64,000 bases of DNA from Octopus sinensis (lineage: Eukaryota), in NCBI RefSeq assembly GCF_006345805.1, contig NC_043001.1, positions 19,840,001 to 19,904,000 on the forward strand, in the 5' to 3' direction. Position numbers and translations under genes: made by a program. The notes below the pieces were generated by a model that worked only from the letters and a program-made list of their open reading frames with translations, was not told the DNA's origin and did no database searches. Of this stretch, positions 3,551-61,769 are shown piece after piece. Positions within the stretch are counted from its first letter, which is position 1. Each line of letters starts with the position of its first letter.

Positions 3551-4970
3551 TCATTACCATGTACCATAGCTGTTTATACACAGTATCATTCAGTCTGCCT
3601 TTCACTCTGAGGAAGAGACCCTTTGTTACTAACAGAGGTAGTAGCTCTCTGAATTTAAACCACCCTATTCTTATTCTAGCAGCTATGCTTTCAGAACAAC
3701 CTCCCCGACTACTAAATTGGTCACCAAAGTAATGAAAACCATCTACTACTTCTAAAGATCCCTCTTGACATTTGAGGGAGTCTATTTTTTGTACATTCCT
3801 GGTGTTTAATGTACCTGCATATCTGCCACCTTAGTCTTCCAGTGATACTACTGCACCTCTTATGTGTCCATAGCTTGAACTGGGTACATCTTATGGAGTT
3901 TCTCCCAACACCTTTTCTACATATCAAGCAGGGCCATCTTCCTGAAGGAATCTGGGATTTGTCTGTTCCCCTACTTTTCAATACTTTGATTCCAGTCCAT
4001 GCTTCCATACCTGAAATTTCTTCTTTAGTTCTGGTAGTGATTCAGCAATAAGAACAAAGTCATTTGCATAGAGGAGCTCCCAAGGGCAGCCAGTTTTAAA
4101 TTCCTCAGTTATAGTTAGGAGGAATTTGATAAATAAGAGGGGGTTAAGAACTGAACCCTGGTGGACTCCTGCTTGTACACTAAACTCCTTCCTATACTCA
4201 TTAAAAATTCTCACCTTACTAACAGCATCCCTGTACATGGCTCGTACAGCTCTCACAAACCATTCAATTATCCCTAACTTCCACATTGCTCACCAGATAA
4301 GGGAGCAGGGGATCTTGCCAAAGGCTTTCTCCATGTCAACAAAAGCCAAATATAGAGGTTCATTTTTGGCCAAGTATTTCACCAGGCAAATAGTATCATT
4401 AGTGCTTCTCAGTCCAAATCCAAACTGCATCTCATCTACACTAACTCTCTTCCTAATTAATTAAGCTACGACCCTTTCTGTAATTTTCATCACCTGGTCC
4501 AGCAATTTGATGCCCCTGTAATTTTTTCTGCCTAGGGCATCACCTTTGCCTTTGTAGCACTTGACTATAATGCTCCTACACCAGTCACTAGGTATGACTT
4601 CCTTGTGGACAACCTGATTAACTATATGGGTGACCAGGTCATATCCCACACTGCCAGGCATTTTAACCCTTTCGTTACCAACCTGGCTGAAAACGGCTCT
4701 GGATCTGAATACAGATGTCTTGTTTTCATAAGTTTGGAATTAAAATCTTCCAGCAAACCTTAGTCACAAATTTATGCTCCTAACACTAGCTGAATGATAA
4801 CTAAGTTATTTTACTACATTCTTTGTTATATTTAGAGTAATTGAAAGAAACACAGAGCATCTCAAATTAAATACAGTAACGAAAGGGTTAAGCATCTCAG
4901 CAGTGATACCTGATGGGCCAGAGGCTTTCCCTGTCTTCACATCCTTAATTGCTTTATCTACTAAACTACT
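3551..4970 (-). pseudogene. Decayed RTE-clade LINE reverse transcriptase (frameshifted, interrupted by a MITE)
   Basis: ORF fragments NYRGIKLL, GVHQGSVLNPLLF, ELLYANDFVLIAES; parallels 33484-34800. Confidence 0.9.
4667..4887. mobile_element. piggyBac-type MITE
   Basis: TTAA|CCCTTTCGTTAC...GTAACGAAAGGG|TTAA; the RTE frame rejoins when it is removed. Confidence 0.9.
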
Positions 4971-8141: not shown

Positions 8142-8325
8142 GGATAAGATCGATATTTAAATATCGATCTTATCAAGTGGTCAGCATGGGAATAAAAACC
8201 TTACAAAGGTAATAATTATTAAAAATTATAAATTAGGGTCTCTGAGAGATACCACCACGCTGAAATAGGTTTTGACTGCTATTTCAGCGTGGTGGTATCT
8301 CTCAGATACCCTAATTTATAATTTT
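8142..8325. repeat. 32-bp perfect palindrome plus ~47-bp-arm hairpin within a (TA)n tract
   Basis: GATAAGATCGATATTTAAATATCGATCTTATC; ...ACCACCACGCTGAAATAG-loop-CTATTTCAGCGTGGTGGT... Confidence 0.9.
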
Positions 8326-11641: not shown

Positions 11642-11789
11642 TGTGTATTAAGGCTACCATTGGTTTCAGGTTATGAAAGAATATCTTAGTATCTTAACAA
11701 TTATCCAAGCCGATCACATGGAAGAATAATTGTTAAGATATTAAGATATCTTTTTCTTAGCATGAAACCAATGGTAGCCTTAATACACA
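11642..11789. repeat. Fold-back inverted repeat, ~60-bp arms
   Basis: GTGTATTAAGGCTACCATTGGTTTCA...TGAAACCAATGGTAGCCTTAATACAC. Confidence 0.9.
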
Positions 11790-18530: not shown

Positions 18531-18726
18531 TATATATTATTTATATGATAATATATGCTCCATTTAGAGCAACTGAATCTAAACAATTGATTGAAGGAAG
18601 ATGAGCTGAACCACTGAGAATTGATATTGTGTTCAATTCCCAGTGGTTTGGCTCATTTTTTTTCAGTCAATTGTTTAGGTTTAGTCGCTCAAAATGGAGC
18701 ATATATTATTATATAAATAATATATA
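18531..18726. repeat. Fold-back inverted repeat, ~94-bp arms, 8-nt loop
   Basis: ATATGCTCCATTT...GAATTGA tattgtgt TCAATTC...AAATGGAGCATAT. Confidence 0.9.
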
Positions 18727-19126: not shown

Positions 19127-20008
19127 TTGGGTCATCCCATAAATAATGCGGTTTTTTTATACTTCATTTATTTTTCAGAATTAAGATAAAGTTATTTTTT
19201 AATCTAAAATATATTCTCCTTCATTTTCTACAATGCTCTTCCATCTATCTGCAAGGTTTTCAAGACTTCCAAAATTCACTTGTTAATCCCAATACTGTTC
19301 TGACCTCATCCACAGAATTCATATGATTTTGAAGACTGGAATAAATGATAATCAGATGGGGCAATGTCCAGTGAATATGGTGGGTGGGCAACCTTTTCCC
19401 ATTCAAACTGCTGCAGTTTTGGAATATCATCCTTGCTGTATGTGACCGAGCATTATCCTGATGGAAGAACATCTTTTGTCTTGAAACCAAAGATGGTGAT
19501 TTTTCCTCTAGTGCAGGTGTCAATAAATGGTTGAATGACCAAATCCAAGCTTCTCTGCTAGTTCCTCAACAGTTACGATGGGATTTTGTTCCACCAGGGT
19601 TTGCAGGACATCCTTGTCGAGCTGTACAGATCTTACAGGATGAGGCTCATTTTCTAGGCTGTAGTTTCCGCTTGGAATTTCTGGAACCACTGTTGACACT
19701 GGCTTACGCTTATTGTCCAATCACCATATACTGCATCAATATTCATCACACTTCCCATTGTAGTGTTGCCTTTATCGAACTCATAAAGAAAAATATGCCA
19801 AACATGCTCTTTTGTCACTTCCATAATAGTTTTGAAAAAGTAACTGTTAAAATCGAATTGCACACTTCAAAATTTGCACTAAGAATAAGCACAAAGTAAA
19901 ATTACTACCTGCTTTTATAGCAAGTTGATGCAAGTAGTTTATATCATCCCCATCCGTCTTTTAGTTCATGCAATTAAAAAAAAATGCATTATTTATGGCA
20001 TGACCCAA
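19127..20008 (-). mobile_element. Internally deleted mariner transposon with both TIRs
   Basis: TA|TTGGGTCATCCCATAAATAATGC...GCATTATTTATGGCATGACCCAA|TA; FHQDNARSHT, TVEELAEKLG, HIFLYEFDKG fragments. Confidence 0.92.
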
Positions 20009-22624: not shown

Positions 22625-22760
22625 CCGGAGTAAGCACATAAATGTGAAACAAGGTGGAAAAAAGAGTACTCAAATACCAGAGGTAGAGTAATATGCTTTA
22701 TTTAAAAGCAGCAGAAATATAAAAAATATGTTATATTTCTGCTGCTTTTAAATAAAGTAT
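22625..22760 (-). mobile_element. Fold-back element in (TA)n (same family as 35278-35455)
   Basis: CTTTATTTAAAAGCAGCAGAAAT...ATTTCTGCTGCTTTTAAATAAAG hairpin plus shared unique arm. Confidence 0.8.
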
Positions 22761-22778
22761 ATATATATATAAAGAGAG

Positions 22779-23590: not shown

Positions 23591-24180
23591 CGTCATCGGA
23601 AGAAGCTAAAATATTTTATATTTTAGCTTCTGATGAGAACTTTTATAGGTTCTATATTTAATGTGAATTCATATAAGTCTTGTAATTGATGGAAATATAA
23701 CAGGGTTTTTGTCATCGGAAGAAGCTAAAATATTTTATATTTTAGCTTCTGATGAGAACTTTTATAGGTCCTATTTTTAATAAGAATTCATATAAGTCTT
23801 GTAATTGATGGAAATATAACAGGTCTTCGTCATCGGAAGAAGCTAAAATATTTTATATTTTAGCTTCTGATGAGAACTTTTAAAGGCCCTATATTAAATG
23901 AGAATTCATATGTTTTGTCATTGATGGAAACTATAACAGGGTTTTCGTCATCGGAAGAAGCTAAAATATTTTGTATTTTAGCTTCTGATGAGAATTTTTA
24001 TAGGCCCAATATTTAATGAGAATTCATACAAGTCTTGTAATTGATGGAAATATAACAGGTCTTCGTCATTGGAAGAAGCTAAAATATTTTATATTTTAGC
24101 TTCTGATAAGAACTATTATAGGTCCTATATTTAGTGGGAATTCATATAAGTCTTGTAATCGATGGAAGATATAACAGATC
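23591..24180 (+). repeat. Tandem minisatellite, five ~118-bp units, each with an internal hairpin
   Basis: Units start near 23591, 23710, 23828, 23946, 24064; GAAGCTAAAATA-tttta-TATTTTAGCTTC. Confidence 0.93.
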
Positions 24181-25319: not shown

Positions 25320-25552
25320 GGCGGCGAGCTGGCAGAAACGTTAGCACGCTGGGCGAAATGCTTAGCGGTATTTCGTCTGCGTTACGTTGTGAGTTCAAAT
25401 TCTGCCGAGGTCGACTTTGCCTTTCATCTTTTTGGGGTCGATAAATTAAGTACCAGTTACGCACTGGGGTCGATGTAATCGACTTAATACCTATGTCTGT
25501 CCTTGTTTGTCCCCTCTGTGTTTAGCCCCTTGTGGGTAATAAAGAAATAGGT
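25320..25552 (+). mobile_element. SINE family C, full length
   Basis: GGCGGCGAGCTGGCAGAAACGTTAG head, GAGTTCAAATTC B-box-like, GCCTTTCATC..GGGGTCGATAAATTAAGTACC central domain. Confidence 0.88.
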
Positions 25553-25783
25553 ATCCTGAGTATAAAGACATCTCCAATGCCACAACTCGTAAGAATGGTT
25601 GCTTCATTAACATGAAGTAGCATATTATTTACCACTAACTGTGCTCCATTGTACAAACGTGGTGGCTCCAGGTTCCTCAGCAGCATGACCGGAGCTCCAT
25701 TTTTGAGGTGCAGTTGATGAGGCGGTAGTCCAGAGGGGTCCAAGGAATTGAGGATTTCTGTGGGAAAATTAACAGCCTCTTCA

Positions 25784-25975
25784 TATTTCTTTATTGCCCA
25801 CAAGGGGCTAAACATAGAGGGGACAAACAAGAACAGACAAAGGGGGGGATTAAGTCAATTACATCGACCCCAGTGCATAACTGGTACTTTATTTATCGAC
25901 CCTGAAAGGATGAAAGGCAAAGTCGACCTTGGTAGAATTTGAACTCAGAACATAATGCTTCTGCCAGCTCGTCGG
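25784..25975 (-). mobile_element. SINE family C
   Basis: Inverted relative to the 25320 copy. Confidence 0.85.
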
Positions 25976-32011: not shown

Positions 32012-33483
32012 TTAAACATTTAATGATTTCACACCAATAACCAGATTGCTGTTAGTACAATGAAAATTTTCACACAAAATAATAAATGAAAATTTTCACA
32101 CAAAATAACAAATGTTTAAATGAAGTTAATGATTTTCATGTTTTTTAAATGGTTGATACACATGTATCTTCTAGAATTACGAGACTTTTAATGAAATAAA
32201 GCTTAACAAAAGAAAAATTTTTATATATCAAAACTTTATATTATATTATCTGTCATGTGGTAATGACATTTCAGTCTAAAATTTGAATTTAAATTTCAAC
32301 ATTTTAATACAAGTAAAAATCAGGGAGGAGTATTGAAAAGAAGTGGAGGAACCCTTCTCTTTTAAGTTTGTAACTTCATAAAAATCTAAGTTTCACCCCA
32401 TTACATAAAATGCTAAATACACACATCTGGTTGATTGCTGGTGATTCATATCCTCTCACTACCATAGTAGTGTGTTACAGGCAAAGATACTTAACTGTCA
32501 ATGGCTTAGTGCACTTAAATGTAAGCAAGTACCAAGGGTAGGCATAGTCAGTTGTCTGCTAACAATTTCTTAACACAAATTGAAATATTTCACTTTATTT
32601 TCTAATTTATTCTAATGCTAAGTGTTGTGTTAGTGAGTCGATGAATGTCAGCTTTGCAATTGTTGATGAGACATTCCGTTAAAGTACAATTCTATTTGAG
32701 AACCAACAAAATACTTATGGTTATAAGGAGATAATTACTTAATTTGATATGGAGTTTCTTTTTCAAGGCAAACAGAGTGTTAAGGTATTTTACCAATAAT
32801 GTAATGCATAAAAATGCTAATAACAATATCCTAAATATCAGATTGCCAAACATAAGAATAATTAGGGTGTGCACCACCAGCCATGCTTCTGAAGTATTAC
32901 ATGCCTGACATTCTAACCTTCTGCTCAGTAGACATGTGACACCTTAGACCAGTGACACCCGGGCTATTTGCAAAATATGTACATGATATTCTAGACTAAT
33001 GATATCAAAATTACCAGAGGCAGCTCTACAAACACTTCATGAAGGACTGTGGAAATGCAGGCTCTTGAAAAGCAGACAATTACATCAGATATATATATAC
33101 CAAAAAGGGGGCCCTGATGTGGCTGCTTATTTCCTAAAAATGATAGCTAAACTTACTCAAATCATACCCTTAAAAATGAAAGAACACACTATCTAATATA
33201 GTCTTAAAGGCTTCAGTTGAGATACTCATGGTTGTAACATATGTGACCATAGATCTTCTAGATCAGGGCTGGCCTAGAAATATACTACAAGAGCATTTAC
33301 AACTAAAAATGTGGGTATTCTGTATAATAATTATGACAGAAGTTGAGTAAAATCTAGAATCTGAGGAAACTGGTAATGGTCTTATTCACCAACAATTACT
33401 TGGTAGGAGTTGTCAGTTATTAAATAATTCAGCCTCTTCTTGTTTCCATTAGTTCATATATATACAATTACAGATATATCAAA

Positions 33484-35275
33484 TTATTGGATCAGGTGAT
33501 GAAAGTTACAGAGAGAGATGAGATGCAGTCTGGTTTTGTGCCAGGGAGAAGCACCACTGATGTTATATTTCTGGTAAGGCAGCTGCAGGAGAAATACATA
33601 GCCAAAGACAAACCTCTGTACTTGGCCTTTGTTGACTTGGAGAAAGCCTTTGACAGTATCCCCCAATCCCTTATCTGGTGGTCAATGCAGAAACTAGGGA
33701 TAGATGAGTGGTTGGTGAGAGCTGTACAAGCCATGTACAGGGATGCTACCAATAAGATGAGGGTTGGCAATGGTTACAGCGAAGAATTCAGGGTACATTT
33801 AGGGGTTCACCAAGGATCGATACTCAGCTCCCTCTTGTTCATCAAAGTTCTCCAGGCAATAACAGAGGAGCTCCTCTATGCTGATGATCTTGCTCTTATT
33901 GCTGAATCACTACCAGAATTAGAGAAGTATTAAGTATGGAAGCAAGATCTAGAATCAAAGGGCCTTAGAGTTAAGTGAGCAAAAACCAAAGTCTTAGTAA
34001 GTAGGAAGACAGACAAATCACAAATCCCTTCTGGTAGATGGCCCTGCTCAATTTGTAGAAAAGGTGTAGGTAGAAACTCCATAAGATATAGCCAGTGTAA
34101 GCTTTGAAAACATAAGAGGTGCAGCAATATCAGAGGAAAGTTAGCAGGGAAAATAGCTTTTGTGTGTGGCAGATGCACAAATACAATAAATACCAAAAAT
34201 GTACAGAAAGTAGACCCCATCAACTGCCAGATGGGTAAGCTAGAGGTAGTAGATAGCTTCAGTTATCTAGGTGACCAAGTTAGTAGCGGAGGTGGATACT
34301 CTGAGAGTGTAGCTGTGGGAATAAGATTAAACTGGGCAAAGTTTGGAGAGCTCCTACCTCTGCTGGCAACAAAGTGCCTCTCTCTCAGAGTGAAAGGCAG
34401 ACTGTATGATGCCTGTGTGTGAACAGCTATGATACATGGCAGTGAGACATGGGTTGTGACAGTCTAGGGCATGCGTAGGCTTGAAAGAAATGAAGCCAGT
34501 ATACTTCACTGGATGTGCAATGTCAGCATGCATGTTCGACAGAGTGTAAGCATCTTGAGAGAAAGGTTAGGTACAAAAGGCATGAGATGTGGTGTGCAAG
34601 AGAGGCAACTGCACTGGTTTGGTCATGTGATGCATATGGATGAGGACAACTGTGTAAAGAAGTGCTGATCTCTAACTGTGGAGGTAGACCCAGGAAGACA
34701 TGGGATGAAGTGGTGAAGCATGATCTTCGAACTTTGAGCATCACAGGGATAATGACTAGTGACCAAGACATTTGGCAATATGCTGTGCTTGAGAAGACCT
34801 GTCAAGCCAAGTGAAATCCTGGTCGTGGATGCTGCTGCTGGTTTCACGTAACTGGCATCCATGCCACTAGCATGTCAAGAGTACCTTTCAAGCGTTGAGC
34901 CTCATGGAGGTAAAGTGGTTGAGTTCCTTTCGACTGTTGGGTGTCATGGAGGCAAAGTGGCTGAGTTCCTTTTGAGCATTGGGTCTCGGGCATTATGTTG
35001 TGCTTGAGCAGAAGACCCATCATGCCAAGCAAAATTGCAGTCATGGCAGATACTGGTGTCACATAAATGGCACCCATGCTGGTGGCATGTAAAAGCACCC
35101 ATTACACTTTCAGAGTGGTTGGCATTAGGAAGGGCATCCAGCCGTAGAAGACCATGCCAAATCAGACTGGAGTCTGGTACAGCCTTCCAGCTTGCCAACC
35201 CCGGCCAAATCATCCAACCTATTCTAGCATGGACAATGGACGTTAAATGATGATGATGATGATGATGATGATGAT
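33484..35275 (+). pseudogene. 5'-truncated RTE LINE: RT, PHD-like finger, C-terminus, 3' UTR, (ATG)n tail
   Basis: QSGFVPGRSTTD, AFVDLEKAFD, GVHQGSILS, LLYADD, FSYLGD; in-frame stops. Confidence 0.93.
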
Positions 35276-35277
35276 AT

Positions 35278-35455
35278 ATATACTTTATTTAAAAGCAGCA
35301 GAAATTCAACAAAAGCTGTTACTCAGAGTGTGAAACTCCGAGTAACAGCTTTTGTTGAATTTCTGCTGCTTTTAAATAAAGCATATTACTCTACCCCTGG
35401 TATTTGAGTACTCTTTTTTCCACCTTGTTTTACATTTATGTGTTTACTCCGGTAT
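35278..35455 (+). mobile_element. Fold-back element in (TA)n with hammerhead 3' half at its apex
   Basis: Arms of ~40 bp; GAAACTCCGAGTAACAG at 35332-35348. Confidence 0.75.
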
Positions 35456-38302: not shown

Positions 38303-39784
38303 ATGTGTTTGTGTGTCTGTGTTTGTCTCCCTAGCATTGTTTGACAACCGATGCTGGTGTGTTTATGTCCCCATCACTTAGCGGTTCGGCAAAAGAGACC
38401 GATAGAATAAGTACTGGGCTTACAAAGAATAAGTCCCGGGGTCGATTTGCTCGACTAAAGGCGGTGCTCCAGCATGGCCACAGTCAAATGACTGAAACAA
38501 GTAAAAGAGGTAAAAGAGAAAGAGAAAGAGATGGAACCTATGACGTGTCATTTTAATACATAGGCACATTAGGGGTTCAATACTAACCTCTGTATCCTGT
38601 GGAGGCACGTGGCTCAGTGGTTAAGGTGTTGGACTCATGATTATAAGATTGAGGTTTCAAATCCCAGACTGAGTGATACATTGTGTTCTTAAGCAAAACA
38701 CTTCATTTCACATAGCTCCAGTCCACTCAGCTGGCAAAAATAAGGGCCAGGGAACCCGCCCTTATGAGTCAGTATGACTCATGATGATAACTTTACTTTT
38801 TTTTTATGTATACTGTGCTGTGTATGTAGTGGTTCCAGTGCATTGCTTTGCCCAGGGGCTTATAATATTGTTAGGATGGCCCTACTACATATGACAGAAA
38901 ATAACAAACTTGGCCAAGTGTCTTCTACTATAGCCTCGGGCCGACCAATGCTTGTGAGTGGATTTGGTCGACGGAAACTGAAAGAAGCCCGGCGTATATA
39001 TGTACATATATATGTATGTATGTGTATGTGTATATGTTTGTGTGTCTGTGTTTGTCCCCCCAACATCGCTTGACAACCAATGGCGGTGTGTTTACGTCCC
39101 TGTAACTTAGCGGTTCGGCAAAAGAGACCGATAGAATAAGTACTAGGCTTACAAAGAATAAATCCTGGGGTCGATTTGCTTGACTAAAAGCAGTGCTCCA
39201 GCATGGCCACAGTCAAATAACTGAAACAAGTAAAAGAATAAAGAGGAAGAGTATACATGTGTGTGTGTGTGTTTGTGTGTGCGTGTGCATGCACGTGCGC
39301 ACCTGTGTGTGGCTTTGTGTCAGTGCTTGTCTCCCACCCCCATGTGAAAACTGGTGTTGGTTGTCTTTAGATTCCTATAACTTAGCATTTCAACAAAAAG
39401 AGACTGATAGAATAAGTACCAAAACAGTGCCCCAGCATGGCCGCAGTCTAATGACTGACACAATTAAAAAAAATAAAAGATACATATATGTAAATATGCG
39501 TATTTTATTCTTTTATTCTTTTATCTGTTTTGGTCATTTGACTGCAGCCATGCTGGAGCACCGCCTTTAGTCGATCAAATCGACTCCAGGACTTATTCTT
39601 TGTAAGCCTAGTACTTAATTTAGCAGTCTCTTTTGCTGAATTGCTAAGTAATGGGGACGTAAACACACCAACATTGGTTGTTAAGCAATGGTAGGGGAAC
39701 AAGCACAGATACACACGCACACACACACACACACACATGCACACACACACACATACACACATACATACATACATACATACATAT

Positions 39785-43275: not shown

Positions 43276-44528
43276 CACAGACATGTTAGAAGTAAATAGA
43301 CACCCTTATAATCATTAATATTTATTTCAATCTGAAATTATACATTCAAATTATTTATTAATTGTTATGATGTGAATATTTATATTTAGTAGACATGCCT
43401 CTTGCATTGCGTTTTTCAATGCAAGGACTCTATTAGGCATGTTAATGATCAGATGACAAATATTCTCTTGAGGAATTTCTTGCCAAGTTTCATGCAGTAA
43501 TCTCAAAAGATTTGGCTTTGAAGTAGCTTTCTTGTTCTTTTTATGAAGTGTCCTGTCCATTATGCCCCAGAGGTGTTCAATAGGGTTCATATCTGGCGAC
43601 TGGCTTGGTCATGGAAGGTTTTCCATGCCATTCTCACCCAACAAATCTTGGGTCATTTTAGCCATGTGACAAGGAGCCCCATCTTCCATAAATAAAGTTT
43701 TCTTTAATCATTTTACCATTGGAGAAGATTGGAGGGAGTCCTTTCTGCAATATGGACATGTATTTATCTGAGTTTATGTATCCCTCACACTCCACCAGCT
43801 CTGATTGACCATTGCTCCAAATTGCTCCCTAGACCATCACAGAATAGCTGCCATGTTTCATTGTTGGCTGCAATCTTTTCATGTCAAATTCTTGATCACA
43901 GAATCTCCAGACATACACTCGACCACTGTCAGAAAACAGAGCAAATCTGGACTCATCAGAGAATATGACACTGTCCCAAAATACTAGTAGCCTCTCCAGT
44001 GTCTCACTGGCCCAATCTTTTCTCTGCTTGATATTGGCTGGTCAAAGAAATGGCTTCCGTCTTGCTGCTCTACCATAGTAACCAAGTTTGTGGAGATACC
44101 TGACAGCTGTTCTTAGACTGGCATCAATATCTTCTGCTATGTCAGGGGTCTTGCAATGAGGATTATCCTCCACACTTCTCTTAACAAAGAGAAGGGTCCT
44201 GTCAGAGAGCCCTGGTCAAAGTGATGTGGACACCTTCCCCTCTCTGGTAAATTGCACAATCACTCTATTAACTGTAGAAAGTGGGATCCCAAGATTTTCT
44301 GTGATTTTACACTGACTATGTCCACCTTCAGATTGACCAACAATATGGCTTTTTTGAAATTCAGACAGTTCCAAGACTTCTTTTGTACATGTCATGATTA
44401 AACAGTCACATATAGAACCTGAAACATAAAAATGTCAATTAATAATAAAAAAATATAAACCTTTACAAGTTAGAATAAACATAAAACGATGTTTTATGGG
44501 GTGTCTATTTATGTCTGTCATGTCTGTG
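43276..44528 (-). mobile_element. Near full-length decayed Tc1 transposon
   Basis: TA|CACAGACATG..AAATAGACACCC...GGGTGTCTATTT..CATGTCTGTG|TA; EDGAPCH and PSQSPDMNPIEHLW motifs. Confidence 0.92.
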
Positions 44529-50033: not shown

Positions 50034-50549
50034 TATCGCCATACTAATATGGCATTCTTATAAAAATAAGAAAAAAGCTGTCCGCTTATTAGAGAGACTT
50101 AGTAATTTTAATATTTCTATTATATATATATATATAGTTGGAATTTACAAAAAACCAAAAGACAAAGACAGGTGTATGAACAACAAACAGGTGTATGAGT
50201 TTAATGCTCGGGAAGGTGAGAAAGTCTTTTACGTTTCAAGCCTATGCTCTTCAACAGAAAAGAACACGAGAAAATAAATAGAAAGAGAATAAAAAAAGTT
50301 TTAGTGACTAGCAGTTGATCATGGTGATGATCGGACAGAGGTGGTCAGACAGGAGAGCTCGGAAGAAGGGGAGATAATAAAGTAGTGGTGATCCCAAATC
50401 AAAGGTGTGCATGTGTGTGGGTGTGGATTGGGGCTGGTGACCTTGACATGTGGGTGTGTGTATGTGTAGGTGTGTGAATGATGGTGTGGGGGAGGCTGGT
50501 TTATGGAGTTTCCCTGGGTTTTTCATCCATAAGGGTTTTGGCCTTACTG

Positions 50550-50688
50550 CGCATCATCAGACCCCAAACCTGTTGGCCTAAGACCTCATCAAAATATGGA
50601 GGAGGAAATGTCTATCTTTAGTAAAGCATTTCTCCCTGCATATTTTGATGAGATCTTAGGCCAAAAGGTTTGGGGTCTGATAATACAC
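50550..50688. repeat. Fold-back inverted repeat, ~60-bp arms
   Basis: ATCAGACCCCAAACCT..TGGCCTAAGA.CTCATCAAAATATG / CATATTTTGATGAG.TCTTAGGCCA..AGGTTTGGGGTCTGAT. Confidence 0.88.
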
Positions 50689-51074
50689 TGTATATCATAT
50701 TAACTGCTCTACATCTTAGAGTGTGCTTTTTCTCTGAATTTATGTTTTTCTACAAACAATATATATGTATTTAATCTTCTCTCTTTACTCCTTTGTGCCA
50801 CATGGGCTCAACTCTCCTCTCCTCTTCATCTAACCCTCCTCCCCTCTCCTCTCTTCCTCTCACACCAACTTCCTTTCACCCACCTCTCTTCTCTTGCTCT
50901 AACTCCTACTTCTCTTCACTCCTACCCTCCTTCACTCCTACTTCCCTATCCATCCCATCCCTTATGCCCACTCCCACCTACCCCACCTCTACTCCCCACC
51001 CTCAACCTAACCCACACCCCACCCTTACTTTACCCACTCTTGTCTACACCACCTGGTTTCGTCTTTTGCTTTTT

Positions 51075-51289: not shown

Positions 51290-51765
51290 CATATCTTAAA
51301 AATCATAATAAAGATAAGTATATAATACTAGCAATATTGTATTAATAAATAAATAAAATACAGCTATGATTATTAAAAAGTTTTAAAATGCTTAAAATTT
51401 CTTACAATCATTTCATGAATGTACTTCCTCTTAAAATGAAATCTAAAGTTGATAAGCCTTGTTGGGAAGTATATCCACTCATCAGAGAATCACGTTGAAT
51501 TTATACCAACATGGATATAGGAATACCAGTAATTTTTTAAACAACATTTTCCTCATTCAATTCAAACAGCATTTTCTTCATTCACTTTCCCAACGATGCT
51601 TATCAACTTCAGATTTCATTTTAAGAGGAAGTATATGCACAAATTAATCATAAGAACTTTTAAACATTTTTTTAATAATCATAGCTGTACTTTATTTATG
51701 TATTTATTGATACAATAGTGCTAATATTACATACTTATCTTTATTATGATTTTTAAAATGTAGCT
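51290..51765. repeat. Diverged inverted repeat, ~180-bp arms
   Basis: TACTTCCTCTTAAAATGAAATCT / AGATTTCATTTTAAGAGGAAGTA and AAAATCATAATAAAGATAAGTA / TACTTATCTTTATTATGATTTT. Confidence 0.88.
51399..51489 (-). ncRNA. Candidate type I hammerhead ribozyme with long stem II
   Basis: UUCU CUGAUGA GUGGAU AUACUUCC...GGAAGUAC AUUCAU GAAA UGAUUG UA AGAA. Confidence 0.65.
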
Positions 51766-55143: not shown

Positions 55144-55197
<54 letters not shown>

Positions 55198-56757
55198 TAT
55201 AGGGCAAATAAGAAAACGGAGAGGATATCCTCTCCCTTTTCTTGTTTGCTTTATAAATCCTGGGTAAATTTCCAATTTACCCCCACCCATACCTAGTATT
55301 CAAATGCAATAGTAAGCACTTGGTTAAAAATACAGAGGTACATATCCAGTAGTATATTGAATATTTAATATTCATTAGATGGTTTCTTAACCTCTAACTC
55401 ATAAAGACATATATATATTTGCCTTATTTGTCTTATATATATATATATATATATATACATACATATATATAGATAGCTAGATAGCTAGATAGCTAGATAG
55501 ATAGATAGATATGTGTGTGTGTATGTCTTTGTCTCTATCACCACTTGACAACCAGTGTTGGTTTGTTTATGTCCTCATAATTTACCAATTCAGCAAATGA
55601 CATCAATAGAATGAGTACCAGTTGCTTCACTAAGATTTTTCAGTCCAATGACTGAAAGAAGTAAAAAGATAAGCTGTATGTGTGTGTGCATGCGCATGTG
55701 TGAGTGAGCTTTGTTTTTCTTACACATAAAAGCACAGAATGTGGAAATGACGCAATCTACCGTTTCAAGACAAAAGACAAATTCAAAACTAAAAGTCTAC
55801 CCCCTAATTCATTCTTTCGCTAAACATTTTCTTTTCTTTCTCTTCCCACTCTCATACTTAATCCATACATACTTATTCACTTACCACACACACAAACACA
55901 CACACACACATCAAACATAATGCTGGGTCAGTGTTACAACCCCAAAATTAGAACTATGTTCTGTGAATACTTCAGTATTCTGACTGCCACTCATGCTTTA
56001 ACTAGCTTTCTCAACGGACAATGGTACAACAGATGGAACCGCAACCCCATCATGAAATGTATGTCAGTGCCATTAGATCACTTACAACTTGTATAACAGG
56101 CTCTCAACATCAACATAAATCATGAACAGCTGTTCAATCAGTGGGCAAATATATATTGAATGTTGAACAATAAGTTGATCAATAAATATTTTTAATTGAT
56201 TATCTTAAATTAAAATCTATGACCTACATTTAATGTTTGCCCATAGTAACTGTAACTGTATTGTTGATACCATACCTGACGGCCTCTGTTGGACTCTTTC
56301 TGCTTAAAATCTATTTATAAAAAAACCAATGTAGAAACTTTTATAATAAACAAAAGAAGTCGTTTGTGTTTGTAGTCCAGTAAATATGAACTTTGTGAAG
56401 TGAACTTGTAAGAATACAATTGAATTAAAAGTGTGAAATTTTCTGTAACCTCTATTCTTGAAAAGAGAAAAGAGAAATGAATAGGTGTAGGAGTGGCTGT
56501 GTGGTAACTAGCTTGCTTATGAACCAGATGGTTCCGGGTTCAGTCCCACTGCATGGCACCGTGGGCAAAGTGTCTTCTACTATAGCATCGGGCTGACCAC
56601 AGCCTTGTGAGTGGATTTGGTAGACAGAAACTGAAAGAAGCCCATCGAATATATGTGTATATATATATACATATAATAATAAATATTAGGGAATGAATCC
56701 AAAATTACAGGGAAAAAAATCAGATTTAGGGTTAAATCCAATTTTATAGTAAAATAT

Positions 56758-57008
56758 TATATAATATAATTCGAGACAAAACCACTATTTTAAAACCAAA
56801 CAAGGAAAGACTTAATCAATACATAAAATTTTAATATAATTTAAATAAACCGCCACTACAAATGTTTCATGTCTGCTACCGACAATCTTCAGGTGGATTT
56901 TCGATCTTCTAATCAGTATCAAATTTTGATATTAAAATTTTATGTATTGATTAAGTTTTTCCTTGTTTGGTTTTAAAATAGTGGTTTTGTCTCGAATTAT
57001 ATTATATA
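56758..57008. repeat. Inverted repeat, ~80-bp arms around a ~90-bp spacer
   Basis: TAATTCGAGACAAAACCACTATTTTAAAACCAAACAAGGAAA and its reverse complement. Confidence 0.92.
56853..56896 (-). ncRNA. Candidate minimal type I hammerhead ribozyme
   Basis: CCAC CUGAAGA UUGUC GGUAGCA GACAU GAAA C AUUU G UA GUGG. Confidence 0.7.
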
Positions 57009-57021
57009 TATACATATATAT

Positions 57022-57052
<31 letters not shown>

Positions 57053-57210
57053 CATATATATTTCGATAGGTGAATGAATTATCCTATGTTTACCGTCAAC
57101 ATAGACAATTCGATGAACCGATACAGGGTAGCAAATTCACGTCAGAAACATGGCTGAAGCAACCTATCCAAGGGTAGAAACTCCGGGTTCATGTGCAGAA
57201 ATTTGTGTGT

Positions 57211-57610
57211 TATATATGAATAAATAAATAAATGGAGTTGAACGAAGATGTTAACAAAATTCCTTTACTCTCGACATATGTTTTGAAGATAACATGGTTT
57301 TATTCCAAAGGAATAAACGGTGCAAATTGCAATCTTCTCATCAGGAATGAAAGGGAGCCTCTCTCAACAACAAGACAAAATAATAATTGCGATGACTGCC
57401 TACATGGTAAACAAAACCATGTAGGCAGTCATCGCAATTATTGTTTTCTCTTGTTGTTGAGAGAGGCTCTCTTTCTTTCCTGATGAGAAGATTGCAATTT
57501 GCACCGTTTATTCCTTTGGAATAAAACCATGTTATCTTCGAAACATATGTCGAGAGTAAAGGAATTTTGTTAACATCTTCGTTCAACTCCATTTATTTAT
57601 TTATTTATAT
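57211..57610. repeat. Near-perfect fold-back inverted repeat, ~195-bp arms, 7-nt loop
   Basis: Centre CATGGT aaacaaa ACCATG; the mirror ORFs 57232(+) and 57592(-) reflect the symmetry. Confidence 0.95.
57475..57556 (+). ncRNA. Candidate type I hammerhead ribozyme with intact core
   Basis: CUUUC CUGAUGA GAAGAU...AUCUUC GAAA C AUAU G UC GAGAG; predicted cleavage after C57551. Confidence 0.78.
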
Positions 57611-57645
57611 ACATATATATATATACATACATATATATTATACAT

Positions 57646-57695
<50 letters not shown>

Positions 57696-57810
57696 GTGGG
57701 TATGTGTTTGTGGGTCTGTGTTTGTCCCCCCAACATCGCTTGACAACCGATGCTGGTATGTTTAGGTCCCTGTAACTTAGCAGTTCAGCAAAAGAGACCG
57801 ATAAAATAAG

Positions 57811-58115
57811 TACAGCTCCCATGACTTTTGGAAACATTTTTTCACACTCAGAGTTACTGAAGCATGGAACAAACTACCTGCATCAGTTGTTAGTTGCCGA
57901 GATATTGCATCCTTTAAAACTTCCATGCTTCCTGAAATTTACCAACACTACACCTGATATCTTCCCCTCCATTCGCATGCACATATGTATATCATGACTC
58001 ATACATTGTTCACTTACCTGACATTTGCACATAATTCTGTGCACCTTTAATGAGTTGTAGCACACCTGAGCACTAAACACAATAATTTCATTATTATTAT
58101 TATTAATATTATTAT
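57811..58115 (+). mobile_element. CR1/L2-like LINE 3' end with (ATT)n tail
   Basis: Matches 12080-12310. Confidence 0.8.
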
Positions 58116-60271: not shown

Positions 60272-60690
60272 TACTCTTTTACTCTTTTACTTGTTTCAGT
60301 CATTTGGCTGTGGTCATGCTGGAGCACTGCCTTTAGTCGAGCAAATCAACCCCAAGCCTTATTCTTTGTAAGCCTAGTACTTATTCTATCAGTCTCTTTC
60401 GCCAAACCGCTAAGTTACAGGGACGTAAACACACCAGTATTGGTTGTCAAGCGATATTGGGGGGGGGACACAAATACAGATTCACAAACATATACACACA
60501 CATACAAATATATATACATATATATGATGGGCTTCTTTCAGTTTCTGTCTACCAAATCCACTCACAAAGCTTTGGTCAGCCTGAGGATATAGTAGAAGAC
60601 ACTTGCCCAAGGTGCCACGCAGTGGGACTAAACCTGGAACCATGTGGTTGGTAAGCAAGCTACTTACTACACAGCCATTCTTACGCCTAC
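60272..60690 (-). mobile_element. SINE family A
   Basis: Matches consensus. Confidence 0.9.
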
Positions 60691-61769
60691 AAATTTTTAT
60701 TGTGAAAGAGTCCTCTATTGTAAAAGGCCTCTCTAGTCTGATTTGAGAATAATTTAGAATGATGGAAATTCTGTGTTCTGGCAGTAAAAATACTTCCTAA
60801 ATTATTACTTGATGAGTGATTTTAGTTTCATAAAGGTATTTTTAGTACCATTTGTGTTGTATTACAGAATTCTTATACTTTTGTGCCAGGGCCACAAAGT
60901 TTGTTCGTGAAAAGTTTTTATTTTTAAATGCATTCTATGCAGACCTGTGATGTTGGGAAGGGAGATCATAAGGGCATTCCCTGTTTTAGTCAGTGTTGCT
61001 AAAGCAGTGTTAATGGTATTTTCCCAGTAAAGTTGGATATTTTCCCAGGTTATTTGTAAATGTAGCTGTTTGGGAATATTTGTAAGAGTATCTTGGAGAT
61101 TTTATAAGCCACTGATTTTATAGGTGTTTAAAGCTTGCTTTGGACTGATTTAAAGTCATTGTTTGTCTCTGATAGTGTTCACATATGTGAGAATTATTTC
61201 TGTGTGTCAAGTAGATATTTCTCAACTAGCTTTCTATGACATCCTCTCTTTTCTGGAATATTATATTCAGTATTTACTACATCCTGAAGATGTATTACTA
61301 CATCCATTTTTGAAGATGGTAAGGTAATATTTGAGGAAAATTTGGCTGTAGTTTCTTGCAGGTCAAGCAACCACTTAGAGGTTTCCTCATTATGTCAAGT
61401 TGATTGATATAATATCATTATGCGTTTCTCAACATAACTTTTAAAATAAGTTGGATACAGATGAAGAAAATTGTTTCCACGAGACACAATTTTCATCATG
61501 TTACTTCTGGTGACATCTATAATAAGTTACGTAGGAAGAAAATGGAAGATTAAGAAATATATTATTAGATATTCTTGAAGGTAACTTAAGTGTCAATGAG
61601 AATTATTGTTTCTGAAGAATGACAACAGAAAACATCATCAACAGCAGTGAAACCAGCAACAATATTGGTTTTAACTTAGTCCACAAGGCCATAAAAGTTG
61701 TGGAAGGAGCATGGTTGATTAGATCTACCTCAATTTCTGAAGACTACTTATTTTATCAACTCTAGTAGG

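Follow-up and report, generated by a model that had tools for sequence, protein, structure and literature searches.

The insert at 57062-57611 of the window (the whole stretch of 64,000 nucleotides that was analysed) belongs to an abundant family of dispersed repeats, of which it is a single copy, and is not a unique locus. It is most likely a dead-on-arrival end of a Penelope-like element (PLE), in which two truncated hammerhead-bearing ends lie head-to-head in a (TA)n tract, and we hold this reading with high confidence. The RT-EN open reading frame that defines PLEs was not linked to the family, so membership in the class, which we infer from layout, is unproven. The layout is most likely one already published for the Penelope-like class, and the locus an ordinary example of it.

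Comparison of the window with itself gave two arms of 196 nt each, 57213-57408 and 57416-57611, which are 97% complementary and separated by a 7-nt loop, in agreement with the palindrome of about 400 bp reported in the initial annotation. The arms differ at six places (57218/57606, 57284/57540, 57348/57476, 57354/57470, 57376/57448, and 57381/57443), and outside a terminal TTTA run at 5 of 177 positions (2.8%). The annotation had also called the palindrome young, which holds only in a relative sense, when 2.8% arm difference is set against the more decayed neighbor at 51293-51759. The whole insert sits between two (TA)n tracts, making the unit larger than had been stated earlier (Table 1). No target-site duplication is discernible at 57062-57611, which has (TA)n on both flanks.

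Table 1. Features of the insert and of neighboring fold-backs bearing hammerhead-like motifs (window coordinates)
Feature	Position	Strand	Remarks
Left (TA)n-type microsatellite	56996..57061	.	Left part of inferred target site
Extension of left copy, one-sided	57062..57212	-	About 150 nt, same repeat family, "tail"-like; outer boundary approximate
Left arm and central loop	57213..57416	-	Longer copy of the same hammerhead-bearing end; loop is family sequence of the left copy
Mirror hammerhead	57268..57349	-	Two private changes: 57284, GAAA to AAAA; 57348, A.A mismatch in stem I
Right arm	57416..57611	+	Shorter copy of hammerhead-bearing end; 5' truncation inferred; outer end abuts (TA)n
Type I hammerhead motif, core intact	57475..57556	+	From motif scan; cleavage predicted after C57551
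Hammerhead stem I	57475-57479/57552-57556	+	5 bp, CUUUC/GAGAG, one G-U
Hammerhead core CUGAUGA	57480-57486	+	
Hammerhead stem II	57487-57492/57534-57539	+	6 bp, G10.1-C11.1, encloses 41 nt
Hammerhead GAAA	57540-57543	+	
Palindromic helix III	57543-57550	+	Self-complementary ACAUAUGU
Hammerhead GUC site	ends at C57551	+	Predicted cleavage site
Right (TA)n-type microsatellite	57606..57690	.	Right part of inferred target site
Neighboring fold-back, different family	56758..57008	-	80-nt arms, 1 mismatch; shares TA tract with the 57062-57611 insert
Minimal hammerhead motif in the 56758-57008 fold-back	56896-56853	-	Outward; CUGAAGA, extra nucleotide before stem II, GUA site
Older fold-back	51293-51759		Weaker hammerhead-like motif 51489-51399 (-), outward; passed first scan only

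The hammerhead anatomy described earlier for the right arm, running from stem I through CUGAUGA, a 6-bp stem II, GAAA, and a palindromic stem III to a GUC site, was recovered in full, and comparison of the arms confirmed the mirror copy on the minus strand (57268-57349) with its AAAA and its stem I mismatch. The right arm has the CUGANGA, GAAA, and NUH core and the three helices of a type I hammerhead, with its ends in stem I, and that stem can be extended by five further pairs beyond a bulged U; the left arm departs from the core at GAAA. A relaxed hammerhead scan gave two matches in the window, compared with an average of 0.017 per 64 kb over 60 sequences simulated under an order-3 Markov model, and none of the 60 contained a match with a stem II of at least 6 and a stem I of at least 5. 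The motif is far above chance. A search of the window with Rfam returned no match at gathering score and hence no hammerhead, and among the 42 matches up to an E value of 10 in 56400-58000 there was likewise no hammerhead; these weak matches, to microRNA and other models that score hairpins or TA repeats, lay below gathering scores and were set aside. The 41-nt insert in helix II may be what escapes the Rfam models. A pattern scan of metagenomes gave two matches of 19 to 21 nt in GC-rich contigs with no further similarity, which we treated as chance.

On its own, the 111-nt piece shows no folding advantage over shuffled sequences (z of -0.02), and its minimum free energy structure is not the hammerhead fold. 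Helix III consists of 2 bp and a palindromic loop, and two copies of the motif can pair over 8 bp at ACAUAUGU, with a computed intermolecular duplex energy of -7.0 kcal/mol. Hammerheads with a short palindromic helix III are described, in the available text of two studies, as not cleaving as monomers and as weak when dimeric (PMC4209133; PMC6765202). Because this helix III form is reported to be dimer dependent and poor in vitro, missing cleavage of a monomer would not refute a ribozyme. The left arm does not provide a single-change control, since it differs from the right arm at more than one ribozyme position.

The family was followed in public sequence runs. Of 24 public runs listed, 20, from nine studies, contain part of the stretch, and none was recorded as RNA. 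Four contig sets (X1, X2, X3, and X11, the last guessed to be RNA) were compared with 57066-57440 at 80% likeness, yielding 1,900, 2,136, 1,094, and 204 matching contigs, that is, 1,094 to 2,136 in the three larger runs. The commonest identity class was 90 to 95% in each of the four, and summed depths reached about 1 million. At 57284 the letter that keeps GAAA intact accounts for 57,506 of 58,135 depth in X1, 107,725 of 108,204 in X2, 125,425 of 127,179 in X3, and 7,139 of 7,236 in X11, about 99% in all four runs, and at 57348 the intact stem I letter makes up 99.7 to 100% of family depth. The two left-arm changes are therefore private decay of this copy. The 25 variant rows listed leave CUGAUGA and GUC untouched, and a single row affects GAAA, namely the change seen in the left arm itself; of the seven listed in the stems and helix III, six keep pairing, including one that merely restores the left-arm break, and one breaks the terminal stem I pair. 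Variant rows reading A to G were considered as editing and rejected, being differences among copies that are present in DNA runs too. In a related subfamily with loose ends near 57288-57320 (14 to 15 contigs per row, three runs), stem II is kept and the insert is different and shorter, with a variant of the inner hairpin.

The limits of the element could be placed from the same contigs. Loose ends at 57211 continue as TA repeats in at least 34 contigs of X2 and at least 24 of X3, which makes 57211 an end shared by many family copies; the right arm stops there as well. Other, diverged contigs bridge 57212 in three runs (for example X2 record 19, 57133-57336; X3 record 26, 57130-57238; X1 record 3, 57137-57264), and family depth persists to 57066, the start of the compared stretch; the left copy therefore extends about 150 nt more, to about 57062. 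Near 57155, in this extension, a decayed plus-strand hammerhead was considered and rejected, since the letter at 57154 is a different one in about 99% of the depth of the three larger runs. Toward the center, depth declines in each of the four runs, and the drop is sharpest in X2, from 1,088,676 over 57248-57260 to 5,001 over 57404-57416, as 5' truncation predicts, summed depth being a rough measure. In X1 the depth stays high through the loop (90,586 over 57404-57416) and collapses after 57416 (3,126 over 57417-57429), from which it follows that the loop is part of the left copy, whose central end reaches slightly further. Other contigs contain opposite-strand joints at 57102/57276 (X2 and X3) and at 57124/57347 and 57283/57416 (X1), with an orientation that is unreadable from the table. 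Among the joints listed, none goes back in the manner of a tandem repeat, over 375 bases and short contigs in which a longer monomer could hide one.

Similar structures occur elsewhere in the window. The self-comparison gave 12 distinct self-inverted intervals, three of them with a hammerhead-like motif, and in all three the motif points outward and faces an AT-rich or TA flank. The fold-back at 56758-57008 has the same architecture as the palindrome at 57213-57611 and an unrelated sequence. In the older one, at 51293-51759, truncation of the right arm has removed the core. Two further fold-backs, 35278-35386 and 22691-22762, have no hammerhead within; they share an end sequence and differ in arm length and center, and for this reason the mirror half looks as though it were made anew at each insertion. 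Short unrelated fold-backs are also present at 8222-8325, 11642-11789, 18531-18726, 50545-50692, and 55195-55258, and the majority of them adjoin a TA or TG microsatellite on one side or both; the interval 39251-39776 consists of repeat copies in a loose inverted pair. A tandem array at 23591-24177 (118-bp unit, 4.9 copies, 90% matches) has an internal palindrome in each unit and CTGATGA in most, and failed the hammerhead scans. The region is flanked by inverted pairs of short interspersed repeats, 2.5 to 4 kb apart (56470-56669 with 60503-60701 and 57726-57813 with 60377-60464), and the short repeats around the locus presumably resemble octopus SINEs.

Published PLE insertions have much in common with this locus. 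According to the available text of the studies concerned, they carry an inverted 5'-truncated copy adjoining the 5' end, with a tail of 30 to 40 bp at one end, and a bias for (TA)n hides their target-site duplications (PMC8557442); head-to-head is the most frequent inverted arrangement, the inverted pLTR being shorter than the direct one (PMC3846280), and inverted pLTRs with short 3' extensions are known peculiarities of PLEs (PMC8969392). The octopus insert resembles these EN+ PLE insertions, as described there, in having a truncated copy and a shorter inverted copy head-to-head at its 5' end with an extension at one end (PMC8557442; PMC3846280; PMC8969392), in its microsatellite target, and in the lack of a discernible target-site duplication. 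As in PLEs, its copies are dispersed, truncated, and found at AT-rich or microsatellite targets, with a short palindromic helix III near the end. The motif itself is like those of metazoan PLEs, so far as the accessible portions of two reports describe them, in being type I with a conserved core, G10.1-C11.1, a 5-bp helix I, a 6-bp helix II, and a very short palindromic helix III, and in occurring as a pair on opposite strands (PMC4209133; PMC6765202). One of these reports, in its available part, gives pairs of hammerheads on opposite strands about 100 to 700 bp apart and regards most dispersed hammerhead motifs as probably related to truncated PLEs (PMC4209133). Unlike the published PLE forms, the octopus locus has a 41-nt insert in helix II and a one-sided extension of about 150 nt, compared with the 30 to 40 bp given in the available text for EN+ PLE tails, and no RT-EN open reading frame was linked to its family in the data within reach. 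No published description of this octopus family was found in a search of openly accessible papers.

No reverse transcriptase (RT) or GIY-YIG open reading frame was found in or beside the locus, and none was linked to the family in the data within reach, which counts against the Penelope-like reading; a stub is not expected to carry an RT-EN frame. Among the 148 longer frames scanned, of 170 passing the filter in the window, none matched the GIY-YIG family and none was a recognizable host exon, short exons being liable to escape. The matches obtained were scattered fragments of RT, transposase, and helicase, and the window contains no tRNA. The two RT fragments, 33424-33930 (+) and 3981-4289 (-), lie far from the locus and are similar to each other (Pfam RVT_1, E values of 7e-17 and 5e-5); they are presumably of the RTE-type LINE kind and not from a PLE. 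The remaining fragments, a Mos1-type HTH at 19657-19866 (-), DDE_3 at 43354-43608 (-), a Sleeping Beauty-type HTH at 44219-44434 (-), and Pif1 helicase 2B at 25525-25854 (-), are likely decayed mariner/Tc1 and Helitron-like remnants. An open reading frame of 59 codons antisense to the arms (ATG at 57592 on the minus strand or 57232 on the plus strand) was rejected as a gene: an equally long frame was open in 300 of 2,000 shuffles, it has no Pfam match, and none of 15 candidate homologs among longer proteins reached an E value of 0.01 or below, a search that is itself weak evidence. A search of representatives gave it four matches with scores summed over 7 to 8 stretches, and the three of these that were inspected are unrelated repeat proteins.

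The lack of a recognized frame at the locus speaks for the closest rival, a short non-autonomous hammerhead element of about 350 to 400 nt, derived from a PLE and resembling a non-LTR retrozyme, that has no open reading frame, is mobilized in trans, and is inverted on insertion. The very high abundance of the family would suit it, as would the argument, in the available text of a recent study, that animal retrozymes derive from PLEs, are non-autonomous, and carry type I hammerheads (10.64898/2026.07.22.740005); like the non-LTR retrozymes of that text, the octopus family is a non-coding repeat with a type I hammerhead. Retrozymes, however, are defined by tandem units (10.64898/2026.07.22.740005), whereas the copy in the window is inverted and no tandem joint is listed in the 375 bases compared. 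We consider this rival improbable. It shares the PLE mechanism with the preferred reading and differs from it solely in whether an open reading frame lies upstream, and sequence upstream of 57416 is absent among the loose ends listed.

A different role for the palindrome had been proposed on the basis that a read-through transcript would choose between a duplex of about 195 bp and the ribozyme fold. That such RNA would form the long duplex is supported by computed folding, which predicts it on both strands; the choice is not. The duplex is predicted at -326.4 kcal/mol, compared with -189.8 kcal/mol when the hammerhead is enforced, a gap of about 136 kcal/mol, and in either direction the complement of the ribozyme would be made first, the antisense left arm preceding the intact motif on the plus strand and the antisense right arm preceding the broken motif on the minus strand. 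From such modeling, the ribozyme would be expected to fold only in a transcript starting near the center. With the duplex favored and the complement transcribed first in both directions, a switch is left without support. Long duplex RNA, if transcribed, is a potential ADAR or Dicer substrate. As a rival explanation, the proposal would amount to an RNA switch under selection, between the duplex and a working ribozyme, in which the left core has been deliberately inactivated. The presence of one intact and one broken core speaks for it, as does the predicted duplex, but the breaks account for two of the five arm differences and occur in this copy alone, similar fold-backs of other families lie nearby, and the frames scanned revealed no host exon, short ones aside. 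Such a switch is very improbable.

The palindromic shape and TA flanks could equally suggest a MITE or DNA-transposon fold-back with long terminal inverted repeats and an incidental hammerhead, an origin that is barely credible given arms so unequal, one being 150 nt longer, that they do not form a symmetric fixed unit, a loop that belongs to one copy, depth that decays toward the center, inversion joints at differing places in other contigs, and a motif far above chance. An assembly fold-back artifact merits as little belief: although none of the contigs in the four runs spans the whole stretch 57066-57440, leaving the exact locus without independent confirmation, the arms differ at five internal sites, two with letters common in the family, the flanks are unlike on the two sides, the right arm stops where family copies usually meet TA repeats, an inversion joint at 57102/57276 recurs in two independent runs, and the neighboring fold-backs show older decay.

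For the preferred Penelope-like reading, the Poseidon element PAc of Anolis carolinensis offers a model of how the insert may have been built. The protein of PAc cuts AT-rich DNA and extends both strands, reverse transcription begins from an AC-rich stem-loop inside the element, and hammerhead cleavage requires the protein (PMC11167929). At the octopus locus the common end coincides with AUAUAU and an AC-rich stretch directly after it, and lies 60 nt beyond the predicted cleavage position. The octopus insert resembles PAc in its AT-rich target, in ends that stop internally downstream of the hammerhead, and in its AC-rich common end, and extension of both strands would be a possible route to two opposed copies (PMC11167929). 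In contrast, the PAc open reading frame begins inside the hammerhead and no such frame was recognized here, and the mechanism was demonstrated in vitro for PAc while for the octopus element it is inferred only (PMC11167929). On this model a PLE protein from elsewhere in the genome would nick the TA tract, and the RNA of the element would be reverse transcribed from internal start sites, one of them in the AUAUAU/AC-rich stretch, about 60 nt beyond the site of ribozyme cleavage, and another about 150 nt further. Both cDNAs would terminate early, and their 5' ends would be connected to each other. It is in the RNA of the source element that the hammerhead would be active, likely as a dimer through the palindromic helix III and perhaps assisted by protein; at this locus it would be a passenger, masked by the duplex of about 195 bp in any read-through transcript.

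Whether one RNA or two supplied the arms can be approached through their letters. At least six letters common to both arms (57290, 57323, 57327, 57378, 57379, and 57384) are a minority in the family. This suggests a single insertion that drew on a single template or subfamily, although the arms may also have been converted to one another later. Two of the five arm differences, 57354 and 57381, match letters carried by 45% and 26% of the family in X1, a coincidence with a chance of 0.007 to 0.18 depending on the assumption, and this is a hint of two templates. The shared rare letters count against two templates, being expected from one. A two-template origin, in which a dimeric retroelement protein primed on each of the nicked target strands and took the arms from two different element RNAs, in an element with an extension about four times the known tail and an expanded helix II, is unlikely.

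Taken singly, the locus is a decaying repeat stub with a published layout and matters little. As a class, such stubs add many near-perfect hairpins to the genome, which would be sources of double-stranded RNA wherever they are transcribed. The step by which PLEs build their inverted ends is described in the literature as still undefined, and a genome-wide comparison of arm against arm could test whether it uses one template or two. Were the two-template origin true, the stubs would directly preserve, in the genome, evidence of Penelope insertion from two templates.
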